Source: a virus (lineage: Duplodnaviria > Heunggongvirae > Uroviricota > Caudoviricetes). From it: a DNA stretch of 30,317 nt. Below, piece by piece: positions 8,001 through 30,317 of the stretch. The DNA is taken from IMG/VR virus record IMGVR_UViG_3300042301_002383, positions 67,322 to 97,638 of that record. One strand, written 5' to 3'. The first letter of the stretch is position 1, and each line of letters starts with the position of its first letter. Made by a program: the position numbers and the translations under genes. The notes below the pieces were generated by a model that saw only the letters and a list, made by a program, of their open reading frames with translations, searched no databases and had not been told where the DNA came from.

Positions 8001-11000
8001 AACCTGAAGTACCCGCACTACCACTAGAACCTGATGTTCCTCTTGTACCAGAAGAACCCGATGTACCACTACTACCATTGGCACCACTTGATCCTGAAGA
8101 ACCTGAAGTACCGGCACTTCCGCTAGAACCTGATGTTCCTCTTGTACCACTAGAACCTGATGAACCACTAGAACCTGCAACACCAGAAGAACCTGACGAA
8201 CCACTAGAACCTGATGTTCCACTTGTTCCAGCACTACCGCTAGTTCCTGATGTGCCAGCGGAACCTGATGAACCACTACTACCATTAGCACCACTTGATC
8301 CTGACATACCTGATGTACCTGCACTTCCACTAGAACCTGATGTTCCTGAAGTACCACTAGAACCCGCAACTCCACTACTTCCACTAGAACCTGACGTTCC
8401 ACTAGTTCCTGAAGCACCACTTACACCCGATGAACCACTACTACCACTTGTCCCTGCGGTACCACTTGAACCTGACGTTCCACTAGTTCCTGAAGAACCC
8501 GCAGCCACCAACCAAGTTGTACCGTTATATCTGTAGATATTATTATCTGTTGTATTATAAAATATTTGTCCCGCTATTGTACCTAATGCAGTACCTGTTG
8601 ATGTTGCAGTTGGGACAACCATTGAACCTGTAACCCTTAACGAACCAGTAAATTGGTGTGTATCATCTATTGAATTACCGAATACATGTGAACCAGACGC
8701 AAATGATTGTGTCAAATGCATTACTGAAGATGATATGATAAGTTGTTGAGCGGTTAAGTTACCTGTTACTACTAAACTTCCTGTTACAACTGCATTTTGA
8801 CCAACTCTAAATGTTGTTCCATCATCCGTTAAGTTTGTGGCATTTCCAACAGTTGTTGCTGATGTAAATTTAGTTAATGTATTATTTGTTCCTGAAGTTG
8901 TAATTGAGGTACCTGAAGAACCGCTAGTACCTGATGTTCCACTTGTTCCTGAAGTTCCAGTTGATCCGCTACTTCCGCTAGAACCTGATGTACCTGCACT
9001 ACCGCTAGAGCCTGAACTTCCACTTGTTCCTGAAGTTCCTCTAGTACCACTAGAACCTGAGCTACCACTACTTCCTGAAGAACCCGTAGCACCACTAGAA
9101 CCTGATGTTCCAGCACTTCCACTTGTTCCCGCACTACCGCTAGAACCTGAAGTACCAGTTGTACCAGAAGAACCTGATGTACCACTAGAACCCGTACCAC
9201 CACTAGAACCTGATGTTCCAGCACTTCCACTTGTTCCCGCACTACCGCTAGAACCTGAAGTACCACTAGAACCTGTAGCACCACTAGTACCTGATGTACC
9301 GGCACTTCCACTTGAGCCAGATGTACCTGATGTACCTCTAGTTCCACTAGAACCTGATGTGCCAGCACTACCACTAGAACCTGAGCTACCACTTGTTCCC
9401 GCACTACCACTAGAACCTGAACTACCTGATGTTCCACTAGTACCTGAAGAACCCGTAGCACCACTGGAACCTGATGTACCGGCAGAACCTGAAGTTCCAG
9501 ATGTACCTGACGTACCGCTTGAACCTGAGGTTCCCGATGTACCAGCACTACCGCTAGAACCTGATGTACCAGCAGTTCCTGAAGTTCCACTTGTTCCCGA
9601 AGAACCTGCAGCTCTTAACCAAAATGAACCATCATATCGATAGATATTTGTGTCTGTGGTATTATAATATATTGAACCTGTTGCAGTCCCTACTGGATTT
9701 GAGGATGCTCTAGGTATTTGTAATGACCCTGTTACACTTACAGAACCTGTAAAATTATGGTTATCATCTAACGTATCTCCGAATTTAGTTGAACCTGACG
9801 AGAATGACGTTGTAAGATGTGTAACCGAAGAGCTCACAATAAATTGTTGAGCAGTTAGATTACCCGTAACCACCAATGAACCGGTTACAATTGTATTAGA
9901 CCCTAATCTAACTGTTGTACCGTCATCTGTTATATTTGAATTACCAACCGTAGAGGTTGATGTGAATTTAACGACTGTATTATTGGTGCCTGAAGTTGTG
10001 ATTGATGTACCTGAGCTACCTGATGTTCCCGAACTTCCACTAGTACCTGAAGTACCTGCACTACCGCTAGAACCCGATGTTCCTCTTGTACCACTAGAAC
10101 CTGAACTTCCTGAAGAACCGCTTGTTCCCGAAGAACCTGATGTACCGGCAGTTCCACTTGTTCCTGCACTACCACTACTTCCTGATGTTCCACTAGTACC
10201 TGCAGACCCTGATGACCCTGAAGTTCCGGCACTACCTGATGAACCTGCGGTTCCTGAAGTTCCAGCAGAACCTGAACTACCACTAGTACCTGATGAACCT
10301 GCCAATCCTGAACTACCTGAAGTACCACTAGTACCCGCACTACCGCTAGAACCTGATGTGCCAGCGGAACCTGATGAACCACTAGAACCTGAGGTACCTC
10401 TAGTACCACTTGAACCTGATGTACCAGCACTACCACTAGTGCCTGTTGAACCTGAGCTACCTGATGTGCCAGATGTACCAGCACTACCCGAGCTTCCACT
10501 AGTTCCCGATGAACCTGAACTACCTGACGTACCCGCAGTTCCTGAAGTTCCAGATGTACCTGCCGCCTTTAACCAGAATGAACCATCATATCTATATATG
10601 TTGGTATCGGTTGTGTTATAATATAATTGACCCGCAACTGTTCCCGTAGGGTTTGCAGATGCTGTAGGTATTTTTAAAGAACCTGTTATGTTAACAGAAC
10701 CAGTAAAGTTATGATTGTCATCAATCGTGTCTCCAAATTTTGTCGAACCTGAAGCGAATGATGTTGTTATATAACTAACCGAACTACTAACAATGAATTG
10801 TTGTGCAGTTAAGTTTCCTGTAATCACTAATGACCCCGTTACTACAGAGTTAGAACCTAATCTAATTGTTGTACCATCGTCAGTTATATTTGAATTACCT
10901 ACCGTTGATGTTGAAGTAAATTTAACTACAGTATTATTAGTTCCCGATGTTGTGATTGAGGTACCAGAACTACCTGATGTTCCACTTGTTCCTGATGAAC

Positions 11001-12765
11001 CAGCCGAACCACTAGAACCTGATGTACCTGACGTACCCGCAGAACCCGATGATCCCGCAGTACCACTTGTGCCTGTCGAACCTGAACTGCCTGAAGTACC
11101 ACTAGTTCCCGCAGATCCTGAACTTCCACTTGTTCCTGAAGTTCCCGCACTTCCACTAGAACCAGCAGTTCCTGAACTACCTGATGAACCTGAAGTTCCA
11201 GCCGAACCACTACTTCCACTAGAACCCGATGAACCACTTGTACCTGAAGTACCTGCACTACCGCTAGAACCCGATGTTCCCGCTGAACCTGAACTACCTG
11301 AAGTTCCTGATGATCCAGATGTACCACTAGTTCCTGAAGATCCTGATGTGCCAGCAGAACCTGAAGTTCCCGCACTTCCACTAGAACCGGCAGTTCCTGA
11401 ACTACCTGAAGTGCCACTTGTACCAGTACTACCACTAGAACCAGAGGTTCCACTTGTACCTGCCGAACCACTAGTTCCCGCAGAACCGCTAGAACCTGAC
11501 GTACCTGCACTACCACTACTTCCTGATGAACCACTAGTACCTGATGTACCTGCAGCTTTTAACCAAGTGTTACCGTCATATCTATATATGTTGGTATCAG
11601 TTGTATTATAATATATTGAACCTGTTGCATTTAAAACAGGATTTGTATTTGAAACTGGTACAACCATTGATCCAGTAACTCTTATTGAACCAGTGAATTG
11701 ATGTAAATCATCTAACGTATCACCAAATTTTGTTGAACCTGATGAAAACGATGTTGTAAGATGTGTGACAGAAGATGAAACAATAAATTGTTGAGCGGTT
11801 AAGTTTCCTTGAACTGTTAAATTACCAGAAACTACCCCACTACCCGTTACACTTAAATTAGAACCGTCAAATCTTAAATTAGATTCAACCGTTGCATTTG
11901 TTCCACTACCATTATATGTAATAACACCATCGGTTGTTGAACCTGTTAATGTCACTAAACCAGATGTACCCGATGAACCTGCTGTTCCACTACTTCCTGA
12001 TGAGCCGGCGGTTCCTGAACTACCAGATGTACCGCTAGTTCCTGCACTTCCACTACTACCAGATGTTCCTGCGGTTCCTGAAGTACCTGTGCTACCACTT
12101 GACCCAGATGTTCCGCTAGTACCGGATGTACCCGCACTACCTGAGCTACCTGATGTTCCAGCAGAACCAGAACTTCCTGATGTACCCGAACTTCCACTAG
12201 TTCCAGCAGAACCAGAACTACCTGATGTTCCACTTGTTCCTGAAGTACCCGAAGTTTGTGAATTATAAGATGTACCATTCAATATAAAGTCACCACCTTT
12301 TAATTCAATAGACCCTGTTACATTAACAGAACCTGTGAATATATGTGCATCATCTAATGAATTACCAAATTTAGAAGATTCGGTTACTTTTAATGTTCCT
12401 GTTACTTCTGAATTGGAATTAATTCTAAGACCATTTGCTTGTGAAATAGAAGCGGTTGCACTTCCGTCTGTAATTTGATTTAATTGAAGTCCTGTTACTC
12501 CTGATGCCGGAATATTAAATAATCCGTTACCGTTCCCAATAAAAGATCCTGTGAAAGAACCCGTAGTGTAAGAAGAGGTAAATGCACCGAATGAACTTGT
12601 TAAAGTATACATTGGTGCAAATGAAGCGGTTTCGGCAGAAACTGCGTTAGTTGTGTTACCACTAATATTACCAATAATATTACCTAAGACCGTTAAATCA
12701 CCAGAAATTTCAGCCGAACTTGAGACTGAAAGTGAACCGGATATGTGTGCGTCAAATATATTCAT
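5008..12765 (-). CDS. Giant fibre protein (2585 aa) with six Gly-X-Y Ser/Thr-rich tracts, five repeated modules and a tail-fibre-type C-terminal region
   Basis: Uninterrupted ORF. The C-terminal part has tail-fibre-like motifs ([19 protein letters not shown], and a terminal [18 protein letters not shown]...[13 protein letters not shown]......YKF domain). It is flanked by LamG and glycine-rich genes. Confidence 0.85.
5476..6048 (-). repeat. 37-aa direct duplication within the fibre C-terminal region (copies at 5476-5586 and 5938-6048)
   Basis: YH[A/S][28 protein letters not shown][S/G]NSPTF. Codon-by-codon comparison gives 35/37 identical residues and 14 synonymous codon differences. Confidence 0.9.
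6724..12255 (-). repeat. Six coding Gly-X-Y tracts ([12 protein letters not shown])
   Basis: Approximate tracts: 11959-12255 (99 aa), 10957-11550 (198), 10003-10560 (186), 8905-9606 (234), 7546-8499 (318), 6724-7140 (139). Gly falls at every third residue and there is no Pro. Confidence 0.9.
7141..11958 (-). repeat. Five homologous 132-136-aa modules in the fibre
   Basis: Approximate modules: 11551-11958, 10561-10956, 9607-10002, 8500-8904, 7141-7545. Shared core: LTAQQ(F/L)I(V/I)SSSV...SF.SGS..FG....D.H.FTGS..VTGS...G...YNTTD.NIYRY.G..WL.AAG. Confidence 0.9.
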
Positions 12766-20045: not shown

Positions 20046-20060
20046 AACTTAAAAAGTCAA
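20032..20060 (-). promoter_or_regulatory. sigma70-like promoter TTGACT-N17-TATATT
   Basis: -35 at 20055-20060 and -10 at 20032-20037 with a 17-nt spacer. The ATG at 20024 follows the -10 by only 7 nt. Confidence 0.65.
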
Positions 20061-20863
20061 ATTAAATTTTGTTTAATTTTTGATAAATCATTCAAATAAC
20101 TTGAGAAGTTTTTAGTTATAAAATTGTGTAATTTATATGAATAGGTTTTATTATGGTTTGGTCCTGGATGTATGTCATCAACTCCATAATCCAAAAAAGG
20201 TCTTCCGTAATCACCATCGAATCTGTTAAATTCATTATAATCTTTTGGTATGTGGAAAAAACCATTCCATATCCAATTACATTTTTTAGATTCTAAAAAA
20301 TGCTTTATTAATAAATGATTTTTGTACCAATTTATAAAATCTTCATTATCATTTTGTAAATAAGTTAAATATTCTTGTGTTTTAACACCATCATCTGTTT
20401 CTTTCAAATATCCCCAAGATAATGTGGGCATAAAGGGTTCTATTCCCCCATCTTTAGTATATAATTCTCTTCTAAATGTATTTGTATACATTATTAATAC
20501 CAAATCTGGTTTAATTAAATCATAGTAACTCATTAAACATCTACATATAAAATCGTTACTTCTTCCTCCTGTTCCAAAGTTTAAATTTACCCCATTTTCA
20601 ATATGGTTACAAAATTGTGCCGGCCAAGTTTCATTATCATTGACACCGACTCCTTCCGTAATTGAACAACCTAATGACATAACTTTAAAACCTTCTTTTT
20701 TTATACTATCACCTCTAAATCCTAATTCATTATAGGTGTAGGTACATAGTCCTGTATTATCTCCACCGGAAGTTGTATATGTCTGATTTACTCTTTCTTT
20801 TAATGAATATTTGTAAGATGAGATTTCAAATCCTTTCGGGTTCCAATATTCTAATGGGTTCAT
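20057..20863 (-). CDS. SGNH/GDSL-like hydrolase or acyltransferase
   Basis: NELGFRGD, block I LGCSITEG, block II NFGTGGRSND, block V DDIHPG. Confidence 0.7.
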   Translation of the reverse strand: MNPLEYWNPKGFEISSYKYSLKERVNQTYTTSGGDNTGLCTYTYNELGFRGDSIKKEGFKVMSLGCSITEGVGVNDNETWPAQFCNHIENGVNLNFGTGGRSNDFICRCLMSYYDLIKPDLVLIMYTNTFRRELYTKDGGIEPFMPTLSWGYLKETDDGVKTQEYLTYLQNDNEDFINWYKNHLLIKHFLESKKCNWIWNGFFHIPKDYNEFNRFDGDYGRPFLDYGVDDIHPGPNHNKTYSYKLHNFITKNFSSYLNDLSKIKQNLI

Positions 20864-21360
20864 ATTAATTTATTTGTTTCTGTTTTTATATGTTCATTTT
20901 GTAAAAACCAAAGTAATGAGTATCGTTCACCTTCTAAAATTGGTGCTATTTCATGCTCAATTCCTACATCAAATATATAAGTGTTTCCAATAATTTTATT
21001 TAAAATTATTTCATTTGGATTATACAATGTAAAATCACCACCTTCAAAGTTATCATTTAATAAAACACCAACCGCATATAATCTGTTATCTCTAATATCA
21101 TTGTGTTTTCCAAACCAATCACCTTTCGTAAATTTATGCAAATGTATCGTTTTTTTTATTGTTCTAATTTCAATGTTTGTTTCCCTTTCCACAAAATCCT
21201 TCAACTTATCAAATAACCAATTGGTTTCTAATGAATAATCAATTGGTTGTGAATTATATTTTCTATCCCCCATTCTCCAATTTGTAATATGTTGATTGGA
21301 TTCTAATATAATGGACTCACACTCCTCTTTACTAAATAAGATTTTTTCTTTTAATATCAT
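20860..21360 (-). CDS. 2OG-Fe(II) oxygenase (prolyl hydroxylase-like)
   Basis: KHND...LLNDNFEGGDF...IEHEI.PI..GERYSL. Confidence 0.85.
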   Translation of the reverse strand: MILKEKILFSKEECESIILESNQHITNWRMGDRKYNSQPIDYSLETNWLFDKLKDFVERETNIEIRTIKKTIHLHKFTKGDWFGKHNDIRDNRLYAVGVLLNDNFEGGDFTLYNPNEIILNKIIGNTYIFDVGIEHEIAPILEGERYSLLWFLQNEHIKTETNKLI

Positions 21361-21370
21361 TTTTCTTAAT

Positions 21371-21913
21371 TTATAAAAATTTTCTTTTTGTTTTCCTCCT
21401 ATTTCTTAACCTATTTGTATTATCTAATAGGTGTTCATACTTTGTACTTGTTAAACCAATATAATCTTTTATTCTTTGTATATCCTCTTTGGTGTCGTAT
21501 ATCCCTTCATATGTAACTTTTAACTGAATTTCTTTTATTGTATTAAAATAGTCAATTGTATTATTTACCCATTCCTCAAAATATTTTATGTCTATTTCGT
21601 TTTCTTTTATCCATTCATCACTTACTTCATACCCATTTCTCCATTCCTTTCGTTGTACTGCTTTGGTATGTGATATTGAACACTCTCTCGCATCCTCACG
21701 CGTTAATCCAATTATCTTATCCCAATTTGTTAAATCAATATCCATTCTATTTTCAATTTCACTAATATTATATTTTACCACAATATTGTTTCCTTCAATG
21801 GATTGATTTGTGTATATTGGTTCATGTATCATTTTATGTTCTAGCTCCATAGACAACCATTCATTCAATTGATATCCACCACTTCTTGATAATGCAATAA
21901 TTAAAATTCTCAT
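21371..21913 (-). CDS. Sulfotransferase-like protein
   Basis: N-terminal IIALSRSGG...L......HEP (5'-PSB-like loop), IIGLTRED...S, VTYE.IY. Confidence 0.55.
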   Translation of the reverse strand: MRILIIALSRSGGYQLNEWLSMELEHKMIHEPIYTNQSIEGNNIVVKYNISEIENRMDIDLTNWDKIIGLTREDARECSISHTKAVQRKEWRNGYEVSDEWIKENEIDIKYFEEWVNNTIDYFNTIKEIQLKVTYEGIYDTKEDIQRIKDYIGLTSTKYEHLLDNTNRLRNRRKTKRKFL

Positions 21914-22950
21914 ATTAACGTTTTATTTGTAGTATCAATAAACTCATATAGATTATGAAATAGATTTGTGTTTTTCCACACTTTATTAAACTCTCTTTTA
22001 AATAATTCATGTTCTGGATGATTTGTATTCCAAACTTGTTTTAATTTAAACTCGCCCTCTGAAAATGTGCCCCAATTAGTTATCTTACCGAAAAACACAT
22101 TTACTTTCTTACCAAAAATAGAATACATTAAATTATAAAATGTTTCCATTTCGGTATAATTTGTATCTTGTACCACAAATGAAGTTTTAACACTTATTGG
22201 TAATGTATTAATGAATTTTAAATTGTTTATTAGATTTTCCCAATTACCACCTATTCTTGTTTTATTTTCATAGGTGTCTTTTGTACCTGCATCTATACTA
22301 ATTTCACAACTATGAACATATTTATGTATATTTGGCATACTATCCCACATTTCTTTATTCCACATTGATGCGTTTGTATGAAGATGTATTGATTGCAGTT
22401 TTGGATATTTTTTAGGATTAAAATTTCTTAGATAATTTCTAAACCCAACCGAAACAAACGGGTCTCCTGATCCTGTTATATATAGTGATTTCACATTTGC
22501 AGAATAATGAGTATCAATTTCTTCAATTGTTTTCTCTATCCGTTTAATTCCATTACTGTTTTCAACAATTAAATCTACCCTACAAGATGGACATTTATAA
22601 TTACAAGTTCTATCAAAGTTCATCATTAACATATCAGGAGTGTTATTTTCTATAATAGTATTATTAATATTTGAATTTGATTTTAAAGTAATTGGACCAT
22701 TTGCAACCCCATAATTTACTAATTTACTTAAAAATGGACAAAGTTCTTTATTACAATACTTAAATGAACCATCTAACATACTTTCTCTAATCTCTTGAAC
22801 AGGTTCACTATTCCATATTTCATTTAATTTATATTCATCTCTTTTAAATGAAACATTTAACCAAGATGGACAACACAAAAAATATTGATTATTGTGTATT
22901 TCCAATGAGTTGAATGGTACACCACATATGTAATTTTTTAAATCTACCAT
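21910..22950 (-). CDS. Radical SAM protein with N-terminal SPASM/twitch-like Cys domain
   Basis: CNYKCPSC (CxxxCxxC), ITGSGDP, LHTN, ISIDA. N-terminal CGVPF...LCC...IWNS...IR..M..G....C....CP. Confidence 0.85.
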   Translation of the reverse strand: MVDLKNYICGVPFNSLEIHNNQYFLCCPSWLNVSFKRDEYKLNEIWNSEPVQEIRESMLDGSFKYCNKELCPFLSKLVNYGVANGPITLKSNSNINNTIIENNTPDMLMMNFDRTCNYKCPSCRVDLIVENSNGIKRIEKTIEEIDTHYSANVKSLYITGSGDPFVSVGFRNYLRNFNPKKYPKLQSIHLHTNASMWNKEMWDSMPNIHKYVHSCEISIDAGTKDTYENKTRIGGNWENLINNLKFINTLPISVKTSFVVQDTNYTEMETFYNLMYSIFGKKVNVFFGKITNWGTFSEGEFKLKQVWNTNHPEHELFKREFNKVWKNTNLFHNLYEFIDTTNKTLI

Positions 22951-22959
22951 ATTTTATTA

Positions 22960-23430
22960 TTAATGAAACCAAAAATTTAATGCGTATCGTGTTCCTTCTG
23001 TAACTGGTTTTACTTCGTGATATTGATGACCGCCATCAAATACAACACCATCTCCCTTTTTTAAATTTACAACTTTATTATTTATATATGTATCTCCACC
23101 TATAAACCCATTGGATAACAAAATTATTGATGTTTTATTTTTTGCACCATCTACATGTCTTCGTAACCACCTACCATCCTTATATTCGGTCATTTGTAAC
23201 CACATCGTTTTGTAATTAGGGAAATTATTTTTACTCAACTCATTTATAACTGTATTATAAATTTCTTCATTCCACTTTTCTCTTTCTAGTAGTTGAATAC
23301 CTTGTTGACCCCATATCAACCAAACAAACCAGTTTGTTTTATGGGATTCACTTAAAACACATTCATTCTTAATTTTATCTATTAAATTATCACAAAATTC
23401 GTTGGGTAAAAGATTTTTATATATTTCCAT
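22960..23430 (-). CDS. 2OG-Fe(II) oxygenase
   Basis: EYKDG..LRRHVD...LS.GF.GG.T...KKGDGVVF....YHEVKPV.EGTRYAL. Confidence 0.85.
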   Translation of the reverse strand: MEIYKNLLPNEFCDNLIDKIKNECVLSESHKTNWFVWLIWGQQGIQLLEREKWNEEIYNTVINELSKNNFPNYKTMWLQMTEYKDGRWLRRHVDGAKNKTSIILLSNGFIGGDTYINNKVVNLKKGDGVVFDGGHQYHEVKPVTEGTRYALNFWFH

Positions 23431-23994
23431 TTAAAATAAAGTTTTTTCTTTTTTTACTTTATCCTTTATTTGAAATCCTAATGTTAAAGTTATTCTTGGT
23501 TTTTCTCCTATTACCGGCATACTGCCATGTTCGACCCTACCAGCAACACACCTCCAAACCATTCTTTCTTTTAACTCATTAATCTTACCATTATATATTG
23601 AGTGTCCGCCTTCATGTGGATATGATAGTATTATGTTATATCTAACATGTGTATATCCATCTAAATTTGAATCACTATGTAAATGAATTGAACCCCCTTC
23701 TTTATTAATACCAATTGCGTCTTCAAACATTGGGTCTAATATCCAATCATTAATTTTTTCTACTTCAATTACCCTATCCTTTATTTTTTTTACCAAATCT
23801 AATGGTGAATTTAATATTTTTGTTAATACACCGATTTGTCTAGAACCATATGGCGCATTTATGGTATGACTATTAGTTGTGTTTATTTGAAATAGATGTG
23901 AATTAGAATTTGTCCAAAATAAAAGATTTTCTTGTTCTTCATTTGTTATGAATTCTTCATAACCATATGTGTCATTCAAAATTATTTTTTTCAT
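23431..23994 (-). CDS. 2OG-Fe(II) oxygenase
   Basis: GGSIHLHSD...RYNIILS.P.EGG...EHGSMPV.G..PRITL. Confidence 0.8.
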   Translation of the reverse strand: MKKIILNDTYGYEEFITNEEQENLLFWTNSNSHLFQINTTNSHTINAPYGSRQIGVLTKILNSPLDLVKKIKDRVIEVEKINDWILDPMFEDAIGINKEGGSIHLHSDSNLDGYTHVRYNIILSYPHEGGHSIYNGKINELKERMVWRCVAGRVEHGSMPVIGEKPRITLTLGFQIKDKVKKEKTLF

Positions 23995-24722
23995 AATAAT
24001 GTTTTATTTATTTTTCTTTGTTCAAACTCTTTATAAAGATTATCATATTTTTGTTTAAAATTATCATTGATTTCTATTACACACTCAAATTGTTTACTTG
24101 AGTTTATTTTTTCCATTTTAAAATCCTTATTTAATTTTTTTGATACCCAATTTTCTAATTCCACCAAATTATCAATATCAAACCAAATAATATTTGGATT
24201 ACTATTTGTGAGTTCAACTACTGGTGTAAATAATATATCTAACATATTTTTAGTATAGGACTCTTTTTTTGAAATTTTTAACTTAGTTAAAAAATTATCA
24301 ATAACTTTAGACCTATTTTCCAAATTATAAATGTCATTTGATGTGATATTATCAAACATATCATTAGTTGTTAACTTTGAAAATTTATCAGCAATATCAA
24401 ATTTATTTTTTCTGTATAATTCATCTATAATGTGTTTCCATAAAGATAAAAATCTATCATAATTGTTTCTTCTTATTGAAATAATTTGATTGTTTATACC
24501 AAATTTTTCTTGTAATATATATAATGGTTCATGTGCGTGTACTAAACTATCCGCCAATTCTTCATTATTCATTTTTTCCCATTCATTTATTTTAATCAAC
24601 TGATTATCAAGGTTTGAATTGAAATGTTCTACTGGTATCTTGTTTTTTAGACACGTAATCATAAATGATGTTGAAGCACATCTTGGTAAACTTATAAAAA
24701 TAAATTTTTTATCTATTAACAT
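23991..24722 (-). CDS. Sulfotransferase family 2-like protein
   Basis: FIFISLPRCASTS (5'-PSB) and IRRNNYDRFLSLW (3'-PB). Confidence 0.75.
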   Translation of the reverse strand: MLIDKKFIFISLPRCASTSFMITCLKNKIPVEHFNSNLDNQLIKINEWEKMNNEELADSLVHAHEPLYILQEKFGINNQIISIRRNNYDRFLSLWKHIIDELYRKNKFDIADKFSKLTTNDMFDNITSNDIYNLENRSKVIDNFLTKLKISKKESYTKNMLDILFTPVVELTNSNPNIIWFDIDNLVELENWVSKKLNKDFKMEKINSSKQFECVIEINDNFKQKYDNLYKEFEQRKINKTLL

Positions 24723-25402
24723 TATATTAAATGATTTCCCTTTTCAAATCTCTTTTCAAAATTTTCCCAAATGAATGATTTTAATTCGTCATTTACAATT
24801 ATCTTATTTGGTCGTTTGGATGTTTTATTTGTGTGATTTATAATTAATGTTTCTCCAAATCTATCTTCTATAAAATCTGTAAATTTATCAATTTCACTAA
24901 TGTCAAATTCGTAGGTACATTTTTTATTAGATTTGAAAAATCTTTGGGAAAGTAAAGTGTCAACCGCACCTCTAATCGGTAATTCACATTCAAAATTTTC
25001 TTTTACTAGTTTAAACCAGCACTTCCTAAATCCATCGTGATCGTTACTCAACAAATGTAATTTATTTAAAAAATCGGTATTAAATGTTTTATAGATATAT
25101 TCATTATCAACATCCTCCCATTTACGAACAGCAGTGTATTCGCTTTCAAATTCTATATTATCCCAAACAAAATTTAGGGCACTTAACCATCTAGATAACC
25201 AATCACGTGTTATACAAACAGTTTCTTTATCCCCCCATCGTTCTAAACATTGATTCACCGGTACGTGAAAATGCCGTGTTTTGTCATTTGGTACAAATAT
25301 TTCTAAATTTAATTTTGAGTTTCTTAATGATTGTTCAATGGAATAACTGGCACACTTTGGGATAGAAACCCAAATGAGTTCATTATTAATTAAATGAGAC
25401 AT
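24722..25402 (-). CDS. Sulfotransferase family 2-like protein
   Basis: WVSIPKCASYSI, ITRDWLSRWLSA, SQ..F, and a C-terminal N...K-type end. Confidence 0.75.
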   Translation of the reverse strand: MSHLINNELIWVSIPKCASYSIEQSLRNSKLNLEIFVPNDKTRHFHVPVNQCLERWGDKETVCITRDWLSRWLSALNFVWDNIEFESEYTAVRKWEDVDNEYIYKTFNTDFLNKLHLLSNDHDGFRKCWFKLVKENFECELPIRGAVDTLLSQRFFKSNKKCTYEFDISEIDKFTDFIEDRFGETLIINHTNKTSKRPNKIIVNDELKSFIWENFEKRFEKGNHLI

Positions 25403-25404
25403 TT

Positions 25405-25707
25405 TTATATAATTGTTTTAGTTGATTTAAACCCTTTTAAATATTCATCTTCAACTTGTTTCCACTTTCCTAACGGACACGATCCCTTTTTATCTAAATA
25501 TGTTTTGGGTGTGTATACTTTACCTTTTAATGGGCAACCACATTCTCCACATTTTAATGACCATTCTTTATTTTTATTTTTAAAAAATTCTTGTTTAGAT
25601 GGGCATTCTAAACAAATATCAAACCTATCATCTGCCAATTTTTTTAATTCATTAGAGTGTATAAGTGTATTGTACCACGCGATTGAAATTTCTTTGAGAT
25701 CTATCAT
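25405..25707 (-). CDS. Small six-Cys metal-binding protein (DUF6171-like)
   Basis: R..ICLECP...CGECGCPL..K.......CPLGKW. Confidence 0.7.
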   Translation of the reverse strand: MIDLKEISIAWYNTLIHSNELKKLADDRFDICLECPSKQEFFKNKNKEWSLKCGECGCPLKGKVYTPKTYLDKKGSCPLGKWKQVEDEYLKGFKSTKTII

Positions 25708-25708
25708 A

Positions 25709-26281
25709 TTATAAGAGTGTTTTTTTATAACTACTTTTTTCTTTTATTGCAACCCAATTAACTAATGTATATCTATTACCATTTTTAACTACCGTTACTC
25801 TATGATCGATATCAGATAAAAAAACGATAGTGTTACCTATTCCCTTTTCTACTTTCATTATTGAACCATCGGATAATTTTAATTCTAAATCACCTTCTTC
25901 ATATTCATCATTTAGTTGTATAACTAAAGAACAATATCTTTCGTGTTGTGTAACTTCTTTTCCTGTAATATCTTTATGCCAAACAAAAAAATCACCATCT
26001 TTATATTCTGTGAATTGGAATTGACTATTTTTGTAATCTAAATCGAATCCTTTTATGGTGATATTTTCATCTAATAATTTAGATATTTTTTCTAATATAA
26101 ATGGAAATTTTTGATAATATGGATAAAATACCACATTTGATTTTCTGGTACCATAAGTTGGGGAATCATAACCAATGGTTTTTGCAGGATTTAATATTAA
26201 ATTTTCTAATGTGAAATTCAGAACTAAATCACATTCTTCTTTTGTTAATAAATTTGATACGGATTTATATGTAAACGACAT
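25709..26281 (-). CDS. 2OG-Fe(II) oxygenase (PKHD/prolyl 4-hydroxylase-like)
   Basis: QFTEY..GDFFVWHKD...SLVIQLN.EYEEGDL...G.TIVF.S.IDHRV..V..GNRYTLV.W. Confidence 0.9.
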   Translation of the reverse strand: MSFTYKSVSNLLTKEECDLVLNFTLENLILNPAKTIGYDSPTYGTRKSNVVFYPYYQKFPFILEKISKLLDENITIKGFDLDYKNSQFQFTEYKDGDFFVWHKDITGKEVTQHERYCSLVIQLNDEYEEGDLELKLSDGSIMKVEKGIGNTIVFLSDIDHRVTVVKNGNRYTLVNWVAIKEKSSYKKTLL

Positions 26282-26287
26282 AACTTT

Positions 26288-26818
26288 TTATATTAATGAT
26301 TTTGTTTTTTTTGTTATATAGTTAACCGGCATCCAATGTAGAAAAAATTGTAATACTCTTTGGGTTTCGTCGCATTCTAAAGGATTTCTCCAATGAACGT
26401 TTTTATCAGCATCAAATAATAATATTCCGTCGCCTATATTTGTGTGATGTGAGTATTCTTCACCACCTATTTTAGCAAATAATGGCCATTCTTTGTTTAT
26501 TGTTGACTCTAAACATATTGAAATTGTTACACTTATATCTGTTCTATCTATATGTTTTGTTAAAAATGCACCATTGAAATACTCCCTAACATATGTGTTC
26601 ACATTATCTAAATGTTCAATTCCATTATTGAATTCTAACACTTTTGGTTTTAATTTTTCCATATATTTATCAAAATTATATGAAGGTCTAAATCCAAAAG
26701 AAGCATTCGTTTCTACCATTTTATCACTAGAAGAGTTATTTACCTTTTCAATATCAAATTGTTTAGATAAAAATACACATTCCTCCTTTGAAAGAATATT
26801 TGGAATGAAGTAAATCAT
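26288..26818 (-). CDS. 2OG-Fe(II) oxygenase-like protein
   Basis: YVREY..G..L.KHIDR...SVTISI......WPL...GDGIL.....HWR.PL. Confidence 0.75.
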   Translation of the reverse strand: MIYFIPNILSKEECVFLSKQFDIEKVNNSSSDKMVETNASFGFRPSYNFDKYMEKLKPKVLEFNNGIEHLDNVNTYVREYFNGAFLTKHIDRTDISVTISICLESTINKEWPLFAKIGGEEYSHHTNIGDGILLFDADKNVHWRNPLECDETQRVLQFFLHWMPVNYITKKTKSLI

Positions 26819-26836
26819 AACCTATTATTTTTAGAA

Positions 26837-26926
26837 TTAACTATTTGCAGTTACAATTAAATTGCCAATGGTAGTTAAAGTTGTGTTCAGTACGTTGATT
26901 TCTGTGTTTGTTATTATAGTTGTCAT
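26837..26926 (-). CDS. 29-aa Thr/Asn/Ile-rich peptide, below the ORF-track threshold
   Basis: Manual translation: MTTIITNTEINVLNTTLTTIGNLIVTANS*. It fills the gap between the ATP-grasp-Hint gene and the first oxygenase and has an A-rich 5' context. Confidence 0.55.
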   Translation of the reverse strand: MTTIITNTEINVLNTTLTTIGNLIVTANS

Positions 26927-26951
26927 ATTATTTTAATTTTTATTATTTTTA

Positions 26952-28451
26952 TTAACTCCAACATATTCCTTGATAAGCATTACAAGTCGGGTTACCGTAT
27001 GGACCGGAACAATATGGTTCGTTTTTTGGACAAGTCGGACAAGCGCCCCCCCAACAACATCCCACTGGACAACTAGGTCCATTATGTTCAATCGAAACAA
27101 ACGATTCGTTATTTGTTGATGTGGTCTTAGTTAAAAATAAGTGTGTTCTTTCTACTGAAATAAACCAACCGGTAAATACTTTTTTAATTTGTGTAACAGA
27201 TACTACTGTTTTTCTAACAAAATCCATTAACCCATCCGTTGTGTTTAACAATAAAACCGCATCTCCAGATACCACATCAAATAAATTTTCAAATTGAACT
27301 TCATTATTTCTTTCAATCAAATACGAAGAAACTCCCGTATCCTCCCAAGTACTATTATCGTCAAAAGTTAATTGATAAAAATATGATAATTTATTAACTC
27401 TTTTTAATGCATTAATTTTGTTTGTTGAATATGTTGTACCACTTAGTAATGTTTCATACGTTATTCCAAAATTTGCGGTATAGGATGCATTATCTGTGCC
27501 ATTTGGATTTGGTATATCAATTGTTTTAATTACATCATCAACATTTAAATCTAATGCGGTTTTAAATGTGCCGTCAGCCATTTCTACTAAATCAGTATCT
27601 AACAGTTTTGGTAACCAGTTACTATTTACAGAAGTTGTATAACTATCTCTATATTCTGAATTTATCTCATAAGTTTCTGAGTTATATTCTACATCAGTAA
27701 AAAATATATTTTCATTTAATTTAGTATATTGTCCTATATGAATTGATTGTAACGTCGGTGGGTATAATATGTTTAAACTTCTAACTACCTTTATGTGACC
27801 TTCGTAACTATTAGTGGTGTTACAGTAGTTTTCCATTAAAAAATATTCAGATGTAACATTTTCTAAAACCACATCTAATTCTTCTTGTGTTGTTACTTTA
27901 TAAAATTTAGGATAAACCTCTTTATCATAGCCAGGATACCTTGATTTTAGAATAAAATTAGGGTGTACACCATTATCTGTTATTGTTGTTATAGTATTAA
28001 TTAAAGTGTTGTTTTCATCTATGTAAGCAAATTGTGAACCGAACGATTGGGATTGGATAAGTTTCATAAATTCAACCTTATCTCTACAATAGGTATCATC
28101 TACCAACGCAGTTGTATCATATGCACTTCTGATAATTAATGTTTCATCATTATCCTCTATAACTGGGATAGTAATCGACAAACCACCAATTGCGTGGTAT
28201 TCATATGTAACGGAACTTCCTGTGTAGTGTGTTTCTAATGTTTTATGAAAATATTGAATATCCCCAACGTAATGTATATTTTGGAAATTATTATCAGTAA
28301 CAAATTGGTATAAATTTGTTAAATCCAAACAATCCACATCATCTTCAACTTTGGATGCGTTATCCCAACCAACTGCGGTGTTTATTTCGATGGGTTTTAA
28401 ATTACCATCCTGATCGTACATAAAGTCCGAACCTATTAATACTGTTCTCAT
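26952..28451 (-). CDS. Fusion: circularly permuted ATP-grasp-like domain + Hint domain + Cys-rich C-terminal peptide
   Basis: N-terminal GSDFMYDQDGNLKPIEINT (D...ExN motif placed first) with later FILKS..G......YFLMENY. Residues 282-457 read KLLDTDLVEMADG.FK...DL.VDD.I...ISVE.THLFL...IEHN. They are followed by 42 aa with 8 Cys. Confidence 0.7.
   Translation of the reverse strand: MRTVLIGSDFMYDQDGNLKPIEINTAVGWDNASKVEDDVDCLDLTNLYQFVTDNNFQNIHYVGDIQYFHKTLETHYTGSSVTYEYHAIGGLSITIPVIEDNDETLIIRSAYDTTALVDDTYCRDKVEFMKLIQSQSFGSQFAYIDENNTLINTITTITDNGVHPNFILKSRYPGYDKEVYPKFYKVTTQEELDVVLENVTSEYFLMENYCNTTNSYEGHIKVVRSLNILYPPTLQSIHIGQYTKLNENIFFTDVEYNSETYEINSEYRDSYTTSVNSNWLPKLLDTDLVEMADGTFKTALDLNVDDVIKTIDIPNPNGTDNASYTANFGITYETLLSGTTYSTNKINALKRVNKLSYFYQLTFDDNSTWEDTGVSSYLIERNNEVQFENLFDVVSGDAVLLLNTTDGLMDFVRKTVVSVTQIKKVFTGWFISVERTHLFLTKTTSTNNESFVSIEHNGPSCPVGCCWGGACPTCPKNEPYCSGPYGNPTCNAYQGICWS
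27081..27608 (-). other. Hint (intein-like) domain predicted competent only for C-terminal cleavage
   Basis: Block A-like LLDTDLVEMADG has Lys where the Cys1/Ser1 nucleophile aligns. Terminal His-Asn is intact (27081-27086), the +1 residue is Gly, the length is 176 aa and there is no endonuclease insert. Confidence 0.65.
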
Positions 28452-28469
28452 ATTTTCCTTATTTTATAT

Positions 28470-28478
28470 ATAAATACC
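28470..28478 (-). promoter_or_regulatory. GGTATTTAT motif upstream of the ATP-grasp-Hint gene
   Basis: Lies 18 nt upstream of the ATG at 28451 and has the same core as the motifs at 1233 and 12789. Confidence 0.45.
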
Positions 28479-28693
28479 TATTTTTTATCTTTTAATCCAA
28501 ATTTTATCCATCTATACCATATCCTTTCGTGAATATAATATTGTATTGGTTTATATATTAATTCAGCCACGCCAAATGCTGTACCTACCTTTATTGACCC
28601 ACTAATCCACCACATTAATAAGAACCCTATTAAGGTGCTTACGATTCGATATGAAACGGTTTTGGCTATGTGTCTCTTACGTTCTACCATCAT
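28478..28693 (-). CDS. DUF2061-type small membrane protein
   Basis: HIAKTVSYRIVST...hydrophobic...YYIHERIW. This family is often found with APS kinase genes. Confidence 0.75.
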   Translation of the reverse strand: MMVERKRHIAKTVSYRIVSTLIGFLLMWWISGSIKVGTAFGVAELIYKPIQYYIHERIWYRWIKFGLKDKK

Positions 28694-29073
28694 TATCCTT
28701 TTGTTTGATCATATTTAATTTCACCATCAGGTGTCATGTGACCAGTTCTAATGGCTGTTCCGCTTATTACCGCCACATCCGCTGGTGGCTCATGATAAAT
28801 TACATCATAACCAACACCTCTACCGTAATTAACCGATTCAATATCCGGAATAATTGATAATAAAATCTTATCAAAATTCTCATTAAAAAATGGTTCTTGA
28901 ATTAACATTTGAAAAACCTCTTGGGCTGTCTTTGGATTGTTCTCATCAACTTCAACATCTCTAATAGCCACCCATACGTTCTTATCTTGGTCCATTTGTT
29001 GGCGAATCAACCATTCGTGACCTTTGTGCCAATTTTGCCACCTACCGATGTACATTGCATATTTCTTACTCAT
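28693..29073 (-). CDS. HUP-fold (cytidyltransferase-like) nucleotidyltransferase
   Basis: YIGRWQNWHKGH (HxGH) and a C-terminal ISGTAIR. Confidence 0.8.
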   Translation of the reverse strand: MSKKYAMYIGRWQNWHKGHEWLIRQQMDQDKNVWVAIRDVEVDENNPKTAQEVFQMLIQEPFFNENFDKILLSIIPDIESVNYGRGVGYDVIYHEPPADVAVISGTAIRTGHMTPDGEIKYDQTKG

Positions 29074-29504
29074 AATGATAATTTTTTTAACAGTTCATAA
29101 TATGAATCCGTTTCGTTTTTTATTGTTGTGTCTATATCTATAAAATTTTCTAATGGGGGTTCATATTCCTCAACGTGGAATTCATTCCTACCCCTATCCT
29201 CTGTAGTGTGAACATAAATCTCAACAACTGATGTGCTGAACTTAAACGATTCTCTTTGGTCTCTATATGGTGAAACTAAGGATACAATAACATTGTGACC
29301 CTTACTATGCATAAATTGTGCAATATATTGTGCTCTTTGAATGTTTAATCTTCTTCCTGTGATGGAATAGTCTTTATTCTTAAAGATGTCTCTTAGGTCA
29401 TCCCCATCGATGTGAATAACCTCATCTTTAGGGAAATATTCCACCAAGTATTTCGCTAGGGTTGTTTTACCTGCACCGGGCTGTCCTGTTAACCAATATA
29501 TCAT
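29070..29504 (-). CDS. cysC: Adenylyl-sulfate (APS) kinase
   Basis: YWLTGQPGAGKTT (P-loop), IDGDDLR, YS..GR..NI, VSLVSPY...R, YEPP. Confidence 0.85.
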   Translation of the reverse strand: MIYWLTGQPGAGKTTLAKYLVEYFPKDEVIHIDGDDLRDIFKNKDYSITGRRLNIQRAQYIAQFMHSKGHNVIVSLVSPYRDQRESFKFSTSVVEIYVHTTEDRGRNEFHVEEYEPPLENFIDIDTTIKNETDSYYELLKKLSL

Positions 29505-29513
29505 ATTACCATT

Positions 29514-29542
29514 AATATACTCAATATATTTGAAAATATCAA
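29514..29542 (-). promoter_or_regulatory. sigma70-like promoter TTGATA-N17-TATATT
   Basis: -35 at 29537-29542 and -10 at 29514-29519 with a 17-nt spacer, upstream of the cysC ATG at 29504. Confidence 0.6.
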
Positions 29543-29549
29543 ATATATT
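29523..29549. repeat. Perfect 11-bp inverted repeat AATATATTTGA-aaata-TCAAATATATT
   Basis: Arms at 29523-29533 and 29539-29549, overlapping the -35 and spacer of the cysC promoter. Confidence 0.75.
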
Positions 29550-29567
29550 TAAATAATTTTTATCATA

Positions 29568-29684
29568 TTAATGATTGTAAATAAACGGGTCTTTTTTACG
29601 TAATTCTTCTAATTTTTTTTTAAAACGTTTTTTACGTTTATAATCTTCTATTTTTTCTAAAATCCATTTATATATCTTCTTCAT
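29568..29684 (-). CDS. 38-aa basic peptide, below the ORF-track threshold
   Basis: Manual translation: MKKIYKWILEKIEDYKRKKRFKKKLEELRKKDPFIYNH*. It starts 1 nt after the carbamoyltransferase stop. Confidence 0.6.
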   Translation of the reverse strand: MKKIYKWILEKIEDYKRKKRFKKKLEELRKKDPFIYNH

Positions 29685-29685
29685 A

Positions 29686-30317
29686 TTATTTATAAATTAA
29701 GTAATTGTCTATTATTAACAAATCAATATCCGTATTATTAAATGTATCAACCGCATCTTTTGGTGTTAATACCATTGTTTTATCTTTTACATTAAATGAC
29801 GTATTCAATAATATTGGATAACCGCTAAGTTTCTCAAACTCAACTAATAAATTATACATCATCGTATGTTTATAAACTGTTTGTATTCTTGCGGTTCCGT
29901 CAACATGTGTAACTGCGGGTAATTTATCCAAGTACTCATCTTTAACAGTAACCACTTGGTTCATGTATGGAACATCATCAGTTAAATTGAAGTATATGTG
30001 TTGTTTGTCTTTAATAACCATTGGTGCGAATGGTCTAAATTCTTCTCGTTTCTTTACGGTTTTATTAATCTTATCCTTCATACCAACAATTGTTGGGTTA
30101 GCTAAAATAGACCTATGACCTAAAGCTCTAGAACCAAATTCACAAGGTCCTTGATACCACCCAACGATTTTACCCTCGTTTAATTTTTTTGCAACATTTC
30201 TCACCATTGTTTCGGTGGAGTTAATTTTAAAATACCGTTTACCTTTGATGGCCGAAAGTATTTGGTTCTCATAAAAATATGGACCGATAAAAGGATTCTT
30301 ATTAATTCTACCGTTTA
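29686..30317 (-). CDS. Carbamoyltransferase (NodU/CmcH/TobZ family), C-terminal domain, 5'-truncated by the window
   Basis: Frame is open to the window edge (NPFIGP...), then GKIVGWYQG..EFGSRALGHRSILANP, VKKREEFRPFAP, AVTHVDGTARIQTV, ILLNTSFN. Confidence 0.92.
   Translation of the reverse strand, partial: NGRINKNPFIGPYFYENQILSAIKGKRYFKINSTETMVRNVAKKLNEGKIVGWYQGPCEFGSRALGHRSILANPTIVGMKDKINKTVKKREEFRPFAPMVIKDKQHIYFNLTDDVPYMNQVVTVKDEYLDKLPAVTHVDGTARIQTVYKHTMMYNLLVEFEKLSGYPILLNTSFNVKDKTMVLTPKDAVDTFNNTDIDLLIIDNYLIYK

Follow-up and report, generated by a model that had tools for sequence, protein, structure and literature searches.

The window analysed here is a stretch of 30,317 nucleotides (positions 67,322 to 97,638 of the IMG/VR virus record IMGVR_UViG_3300042301_002383, Caudoviricetes), which is part of a 97.6-kb contig estimated to be 29% complete. 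An open reading frame on its minus strand (26952..28451) encodes a 499-amino-acid protein ending in ...FVSIEHN and a 42-residue tail, and this cysteine-rich tail, together with the domains that carry it, is the subject of the present analysis. The coordinates of the tail (residues 458–499; 26955–27080, minus strand) are exact, with the stop codon at 26952–26954. The parts of the protein are located as follows, where tail residues are counted from the one after Asn457 and L005 is a related locus on a 297-kb contig.

27612..28451, minus strand: ATP-grasp-like amide ligase domain, residues 1–280 (from Foldseek, invariant columns and a model with a predicted local distance difference test score, pLDDT, >90)
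27081..27611, minus strand: predicted cleavage-only Hint domain, residues 281–457 (from Foldseek, an intein profile and column counts)
27081..27086, minus strand: His456-Asn457, the last two residues of the Hint domain (HN), where Asn cyclisation is predicted, with the cut before Gly458 (from conservation)
26955..27080, minus strand: 42-amino-acid Cys-rich tail, residues 458–499, with C4, C17, K19, C24 and C33 invariant within the close family
27024..27026, minus strand: codon of tail Lys19 (residue 476), the sole invariant non-Cys residue of the tail
26985..27008, minus strand: hot-spot loop, tail residues 25–32 between C24 and C33, with 12 of the 16 nucleotide differences from L005

The translation of the tail is identical to the string on which the original prediction was built, with cysteines at positions 4, 8, 9, 14, 17, 24, 33 and 40 (framework C-CC-C-C-C-C-C). 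Its composition does differ sharply from that of the rest of the protein, as had been claimed, since Cys (8/42 versus 3/457 in the body; Fisher p = 1.8e-7), Pro (7/42 versus 10/457; p = 1.9e-4) and Gly (7/42 versus 20/457; p = 0.004) are all enriched in it. The absence of a signal peptide was likewise borne out, the N-terminus (MRTVLIGSDFMYDQDG...) having no hydrophobic stretch when read by eye only. The tail is not the chance end of an open reading frame, because the protein is shared by more than 772 clusters at 90% identity, nearly all of 485–502 amino acids, and each full-length cluster listed carries a Cys-rich tail after the same HN; among representatives at 50% identity, 255 relatives were counted. 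No match was found in cultured phages by megablast and tblastn against 50,697 phage records, no free-standing tail homologs of 26–84 amino acids were detected at the sensitivity of the search, and the 97.6-kb contig yielded no orphan tail cassettes, only off-frame noise.

The tails of the family combine a few fixed residues with otherwise rapid change. The mean pairwise identity is 73% in the ATP-grasp part, 66% in the Hint part and 87% in the last 20 residues of the Hint part, and it falls to 42% in the tail, or 28% when Cys is excluded. Among 114 close tails, only C4, C17, K19, C24 and C33 are invariant, while C9 and P18 are nearly so, and in distant homologs a C-x-K motif, or a Lys near the end, also recurs, so that a Lys soon after the HN is a feature of the whole family; Lys19 is a candidate amine for ligation or modification. 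The number of cysteines is even in 198 of 200 short tails (15–75 amino acids) and odd in two, with eight in 135, six in 53, ten in seven, four in two and twelve in one, and at least 12 different frameworks occur, all of them even, where relocations keep the parity, for example when a vicinal CC appears as the final Cys is lost. Cys, Pro, Gly, Ser and Tyr are abundant in the tails, while His is their rarest residue (0.5%) and is found at no Cys column. Alignment of the post-HN tails, which had been proposed as the check on the idea of a mini-protein, thus revealed a hypervariable region with few fixed cysteines and spoke against an invariant structural zinc finger.

The mode of this change can be followed at the nucleotide level among fourteen related viral contigs. 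Against L005, the body of the gene differs at 5 of 1371 nucleotides and is otherwise ~99.6% identical, whereas the tail differs at 16 of 126 (p = 3.6e-14), with 12 of the 16 differences in codons 25–32, among them synonymous codon changes at more than one base (Ser TCC to AGT, for example). The proportions of synonymous (pS) and non-synonymous (pN) differences are both raised in the tail (pS 0.205 versus 0.014 in the body; pN 0.106 versus 0.001). Such a pattern indicates that relaxed or diversifying selection is accompanied by recombination in patches or by a local mutational process. Identity between window positions 24000–30317 and L005, which carries a 99%-identical protein, is mosaic over a wider range, where the ligase-Hint body is at ~100% and short patches at 55–80% lie in the tail, in parts of the upstream genes for 3'-phosphoadenosine 5'-phosphosulfate (PAPS) and in one downstream oxygenase region.

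When folded alone from 114 aligned tails, the tail gave a model with a mean pLDDT of 90.1 and a predicted template modelling score of 0.61, which contains a small beta-hairpin at residues 23–27 and 32–34. Exhaustive alignment of this model to 48,161 chains returned 2hlg as the sole match with Z >= 2, and this match is weak (Z 2.8, root-mean-square deviation 2.0 Å over 30 of 39 residues, 20% identity). The structure 2hlg is the tomato cystine-knot miniprotein TCMP-2 (PMC7648202). The ESM Atlas yielded weak rows only, of which the best was Shisa_N (template modelling score, TM, 0.50 over 32 residues), and its feature search gave no usable match. Ten tails or cargos were scanned against families with E values up to 10 allowed, which produced chance-level rows only and no zinc-finger family beyond a chance-level 0.89 match to the tail of one homolog; no NCBIfam or Pfam family of the SCIFF (six cysteines in forty-five residues) or ranthipeptide type matched the protein or its tail. 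A disulfide-type mini-domain fits the tail better than a thioether core of a ribosomally synthesised and post-translationally modified peptide (RiPP) or a fixed zinc finger, because the Cys parity is even, His is nearly absent, the model is compact and confident, and the one structural match is knottin-like. The original prediction of a disulfide-rich mini-protein or a thioether-RiPP core was therefore strengthened in its first half by the even counts, the lack of Cys/His exchange, the compact model and the TCMP-2 match, and it lost ground in its second, given the same parity, the missing SCIFF and ranthipeptide matches and a radical S-adenosylmethionine (SAM) gene that is several genes away and matches its family below threshold. 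Metal binding by the cysteines alone is possible. That the tail is a real, autonomous, Cys-paired mini-domain, carried as polymorphic cargo by a conserved ligase-Hint protein, is well supported.

The carrier itself belongs to no family in Pfam (at E up to 1), PHROGs or NCBIfam scans of all 499 residues, while an AlphaFold2 model built from 85 homologs is confident over residues 1–450 (pLDDT mostly >90). Its N-terminal part matches the glutathione synthetases 8fbz, 1m0t and 2hgs and E. coli YgiC (7uk8) in Foldseek (E 6e-6 to 7e-5), begins with the motif D9...E22-x-N24 and has the invariant columns E22, N24, R108, D118, P181 and R224. On this model, residues 1–280 can be assigned as a glutathione-synthetase/YgiC-like ATP-grasp amide ligase, where E22 and N24 match the Mg-binding E-x-N. 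Residues ~285–457 adopt a Hint fold (E 3e-7 to 1e-5; TM by target 0.6–0.73) resembling the TvoVMA, DnaB and RecA inteins, the hedgehog autoprocessing domain (HhC), Tetrahymena BIL2 and a bacterial intein-like (BIL) domain of Clostridium, and the family sequence profile independently matches the KlbA intein (E 3.7e-5). The search of BFVD viral structures returned matches to the Hint domain only and no full-length look-alike, and the PT-HINT model (PF07591) does not match this domain.

The residues of a splicing intein are missing at the N-terminal side of this Hint domain, as residue 281, where Cys1 would stand, is Pro or Tyr and residue 282 is Lys or His (Pro281 and Lys282 in the present protein), so that no Cys, Ser or Thr stands at position 1; the block-B TxxH is lost, being aligned to W-E-D-T, and the +1 residue is mostly not a nucleophile. 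At the C-terminal side, Asn457 is kept in 245/245 and His456 in 237/245 homologs with a placeable junction, and Asn457 is also invariant in the family alignment of 85 rows (A1). The residue after Asn is nearly unrestricted in the same 245 homologs (Ala 32, Tyr 31, Phe 26, Gly 24, Leu 24, Ser 20 and Pro 17 among others, with Cys in only 3). The domain is thus predicted to be cleavage-only, because Cys1 and TxxH are lost but the terminal HN is kept; it appears to lack what N-terminal acyl shift and splicing need and to retain what C-terminal Asn cyclisation needs. An invariant HN at a hypervariable border is most economically read as a release site at which Asn457 would cyclise.

The cargo site after HN is modular, as distant homologs carry a module of ~458 residues ending in HN and then one of four cargo types. 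These are other Cys-rich tails of 25–100 amino acids; a Cys-rich segment followed by a Peptidase_S74 self-cleaving intramolecular-chaperone domain (P0206 and P0240); a Cys-rich segment with a complete intein-like Hint domain, which starts with Cys and ends in HN-KK; and cargos of 540–1,200 amino acids, of which those of P0173, P0177 and P0185 are alike after HN. BACON domains occur in both large cargos scanned (P0173 and P0185), the BACON-cargo proteins being 1,100–1,670 amino acids long. No toxin family was found among the scanned alternative cargos, which matched BACON, S74 and Hint models instead and look like binding or structural modules. One 1,667-amino-acid BACON-cargo homolog (L024:150-5153) lies directly upstream of a phage tail-sheath gene (L024:5583-7562), which hints that at least some cargos may be virion-associated.

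A second Hint domain, with Cys1, an HPF block and a terminal HN, interrupts or follows the tail just ahead of a terminal Lys-Lys motif in P0194, P0249, P0224, P0196, P0170, P0172, P0242, P0244, P0250 and P0270, and that of P0194 matches PT-HINT (PF07591) with E 1e-12. With Lys, Val or Ala at +1, none of them a nucleophile, this domain cannot splice canonically. Inspection by eye suggests an intein-like insertion just before the terminal basic motif; cyclisation of the tail by bracketing Hint domains, in the manner of split intein circular ligation of peptides and proteins (SICLOPPS), was considered and rejected, as relatives without the second domain suggest insertion before Lys-Lys.

The ligase-Hint gene lies in a tightly packed block of minus-strand genes, with no terminator-like site between genes on that strand. 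Upstream genes encode a carbamoyltransferase, an adenosine 5'-phosphosulfate (APS)-kinase-like protein, a small HxGH nucleotidyltransferase and a DUF2061 membrane protein, and the neighbouring features are as follows, where 2OG stands for 2-oxoglutarate.

28478..29504, minus strand: conserved upstream trio of DUF2061 membrane protein, small HxGH nucleotidyltransferase and APS-kinase-like P-loop protein
26837..26926, minus strand: 29-amino-acid micro-gene, which starts 26 nucleotides after the tail stop and is nearly invariant while the tail varies
25405..25707, minus strand: 100-amino-acid Zn-ribbon-like protein with six Cys (CxxC...CxxCxC...C) and the C-terminus K-T-I-I, the most conserved partner
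20057..26818, minus strand: cassette of tailoring-type enzymes (2OG-Fe(II) oxygenases, sulfotransferase-like, radical SAM and SGNH-like proteins), mostly with K-x-L/I-[ILF] ends

The upstream trio is kept together with a homolog at ~30% identity and in a 335-kb GenBank contig, and may form a minimal unit of PAPS supply. Its APS-kinase-like (144 amino acids) and HxGH nucleotidyltransferase (126 amino acids) proteins, at window 28693–29504 on the minus strand, match the two halves of phrog_10255. Across all close loci, and in L023 as well, the micro-gene hardly varies, and helical micro-open reading frames of 30–45 amino acids stand at the equivalent place in L022, L024 and L025. The Zn-ribbon-like protein is present in 19/19 related loci compared, including those of homologs at 27–30% identity, and in L024 its gene, previously uncalled, adjoins that of the 1,667-amino-acid BACON-cargo homolog. 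Complex prediction of the full protein with this partner gave scores of 0.42, 0.02 and 0.01, which count neither for nor against binding.

The downstream cassette comprises several 2OG-Fe(II) oxygenases, three sulfotransferase-like proteins, one radical SAM enzyme and one SGNH-like protein, and its core is 60–97% identical across related loci. Ten consecutive and mostly unrelated proteins (window 20057–26818, minus strand) share the C-terminal K-x-L/I-[ILF] motif, in forms such as KTLI, KTLL, KTLF, KSLI, NKLI, QNLI, KTII and similar, and the same tag is borne by neighbours of the 27–30%-identity homologs in L022, L019, L021 and L025. The radical SAM enzyme scores 61 bits against a twitch-type family whose cut-off is 170, and matches SPASM peptide maturases more weakly; its gene, several genes from the ligase-Hint gene, is a conserved cassette member (76–82% identity). 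The presence of one oxygenase gene and of one sulfotransferase-like gene varies loosely with tail class, a weak lead in which relatedness is uncorrected. The cassette of P0194, whose tail has two Trp, includes a tryptophan-halogenase gene (L022:1220-2446). Elsewhere in the window (5008–12765, minus strand), a 2,585-amino-acid protein contains 19 stretches of collagen triple-helix repeat (E 4e-149), and the products of the neighbouring hydroxylase, sulfotransferase and glycosyltransferase genes could act on this protein instead of the tail; a collagen-like substrate was proposed for similar operons by Iyer et al. (PMC2938197).

The reading preferred here, with a confidence only slightly above even, is that of a three-part phage protein, where an ATP-grasp ligase and a cleavage-only Hint domain are followed by a variable, knottin-like Cys cargo, which would be released and locked by disulfides and would not be a thioether RiPP. 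The eight cysteines of the tail would be paired (four disulfides predicted) around a fixed C...C-P-K...C...C core, while its loops would be replaced rapidly, partly by short recombination patches. The tail is made tethered to its carrier, as the reading frame itself shows, and Asn457 would then form a succinimide, freeing the tail with a new N-terminal Gly, as suggested by the Hint fold, by an Asn that never varies and a His that rarely does, and by the absence of every residue that N-terminal chemistry requires. Before or after release, the tagged oxygenases, sulfotransferases and radical SAM enzyme, which are co-transcribed with the gene, could modify the tail, for which conserved linkage is the argument, and, more speculatively, the fused ligase might couple a carboxylate to tail Lys19 or to the new alpha-amine. 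What results would be a knob that differs between strains, serves to bind or inhibit, and is locked by its disulfides after leaving the reducing cytoplasm; it would not be an enzyme toxin.

Several observations weigh against this reading. The tail reaches a pLDDT of only 52–61 in the full-length model, Foldseek found nothing for the tail model in the PDB, and the 2hlg match is, as noted, weak. Phage proteins are made in the reducing cytoplasm, neither a thiol oxidase (PF04777) nor a thioredoxin (PF00085) was found in the 97.6-kb contig, which is ~29% of the genome, and even Cys counts are equally compatible with all-Cys metal sites (four, eight, or Zn2Cys6). The ratio of non-synonymous to synonymous change (dN/dS) in the tail is 0.16–0.64, which is below 1, albeit always at least that of the body. 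As for release, Pro stands at +1 in 17 homologs and may disfavour cleavage, and the block-F position 437, whose residues help Asn cyclisation in inteins, is only partly kept (His in 35, Asp in 24 and others in 26 of the 85 rows of A1). A few distant homologs have tails of only 3–13 residues in which the Lys is retained, and the common function of the family may therefore lie in this Lys and not in a folded peptide.

In an unlikely, though conceivable, extension of the mechanism, the protein would be a self-contained peptide-conjugation machine, in which the Hint domain exposes an amine on the knob and the ATP-grasp domain joins it, or Lys19, to a carboxylate. That carboxylate could be the C-terminus of the knob itself, giving a cyclic, cyclotide-like product, or else the conserved C-terminal K-T-L-I tag of the partners or of a virion protein. 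If true, this would represent ubiquitin-like or sortase-like ligation by an ATP-grasp enzyme and interchangeable, strain-specific binding tips of phages. The tail could instead hold an all-Cys cluster of Zn, Fe or Cu (e.g. two Cys4 sites) and act inside the cell, either attached to its carrier or released. This is rather unlikely, although the CxxC and CxxxC spacings (C14-P-T-C17 and C4-x3-C8) are typical of metal knuckles, counts of four, eight and six fit Cys4 or Zn2Cys6 sites, the tail is synthesised in a reducing cytoplasm and lacks a signal peptide, and the conserved partner is itself a Zn-ribbon-like six-Cys protein; the lack of any zinc-finger match even at E up to 10, the lack of Cys/His interchange at any Cys column together with the rarity of His, and the hypervariable lengths of the inter-ligand loops argue the other way, and counts of 10 and 12 with parity-kept relocations fit pairing better than fixed four-ligand sites. 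It is quite unlikely that no release occurs at all, in which case the Hint domain would be a degenerate, non-cleaving scaffold and the tail a permanently attached variable knob, such as a targeting or docking module. Cleavage is a prediction, Cys1 and the block-B His are lost, the block-F His is only partly conserved, and confidence in the full-length model is high as far as the junction, all of which suit that view; yet a structural remnant would not be expected to keep Asn in 245/245 and His in 237/245 homologs at a hypervariable border, the cargos range from 3 to ~1,200 residues, some forms have a second self-cleaving module behind the Cys-rich part, and release modules such as PT-HINT typically show this pattern (PMC3113570).

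A small toxin or anti-defence peptide of the polymorphic-toxin type, freed by the Hint domain and accompanied by a neighbouring immunity gene, would resemble the present protein in its conserved N-part, Hint domain, variable C-terminus and patchwise replacement of the tail (PMC3113570). It is nevertheless very unlikely, as the scanned alternative cargos include no toxin family and the contig no orphan tail cassettes, and the micro-gene and the Zn-ribbon-like partner, unlike co-varying immunity genes, are conserved beside a hypervariable tail. Such conserved partners argue against a toxin-immunity pair and suggest a target that lies outside the phage genome. Least probable, and hardly to be expected, is a thioether or other radical-SAM RiPP core, to which the ligase-Hint part would be a giant self-removing leader. 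The radical SAM gene is indeed conserved in the cassette (76–82% identity), with its sub-threshold twitch match, and a Cys-rich core stands behind a conserved region as in SCIFF precursors, but strict even parity has no reason in Cys-to-carbon cross-links, no SCIFF or ranthipeptide family matches, and the radical SAM gene is not adjacent and is missing from the contigs of distant homologs, which are too short to prove its absence.

If the tail is released and disulfide-locked, as preferred here, large uncultured aquatic phages would make their own libraries of conotoxin- or knottin-style mini-proteins, and their release from an enzyme carrier by Asn cyclisation of a Hint domain would be an undescribed route for peptides of this kind. 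Full-text searches of the literature returned no account of an ATP-grasp-Hint-Cys-peptide architecture, and the closest concepts include the oxygenase/halogenase clusters that Iyer et al. (PMC2938197) noted in cyanophages and a survey of jumbo phages (PMC7824862). A hypervariable tail behind a presumed self-cutting Hint domain thus suggests an apparently undescribed way of making and releasing variable peptides. An abundant and modular family that is linked to tailoring enzymes could be a new source of stable peptide scaffolds, and may, in addition, mark phage-host specificity and bring a novel chemistry of protein ligation.

Among known systems, pretoxin-HINT domains, which are the release modules of bacterial polymorphic toxins (PMC3113570), and A-type BIL domains are similar in that a Hint domain stands between a conserved N-part and a polymorphic cargo exchanged among close relatives, and in that a C-terminal cut is expected from its His-Asn end and the lack of a nucleophile at +1. 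They differ in that the Hint domain of the present protein has no Pfam match and lacks Cys1 and block B, in that an ATP-grasp ligase takes the place of a domain for secretion or trafficking, and in that the cargo consists of Cys-rich mini-domains or BACON proteins, not of enzyme toxins, with no co-varying immunity gene. The Peptidase_S74 domains of phage tail fibres and tailspikes recur directly behind the Cys-rich segment of P0206 and P0240, which points to a processed module, possibly on the virion, whereas the protein of the window has no S74 domain and its tail is the extreme C-terminus. Ranthipeptides, SCIFF peptides and other radical-SAM RiPPs share a Cys-rich C-terminal core behind a conserved region and a radical SAM gene in an operon-like block, but the corresponding leader here would be a 457-amino-acid enzyme-Hint fusion, the Cys counts are even, and the radical SAM enzyme is non-adjacent and not a confirmed SPASM protein.

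Knottins such as TCMP-2 (PDB 2hlg) are comparable in size (35–42 residues), in their 6–8 Cys and in a small beta-hairpin core, although the tail is likened to them by fold alone, through a weak match (Z 2.8, 20% identity), and not by membership of a sequence family. Conotoxin-type precursors, in which a conserved pro-region precedes a mature peptide with heavy post-translational modification, have the same combination of a fixed Cys scaffold with hypervariable loops and of raised synonymous and non-synonymous change in the mature part, and, judging from gene linkage only, the neighbours of the ligase-Hint gene could supply hydroxylation and sulfation (and halogenation in L022). Unlike conotoxins, the present peptides are of phage origin and have neither a signal peptide nor an endoplasmic reticulum to pass through, and their predicted release is by a self-cutting Hint domain rather than by a protease.

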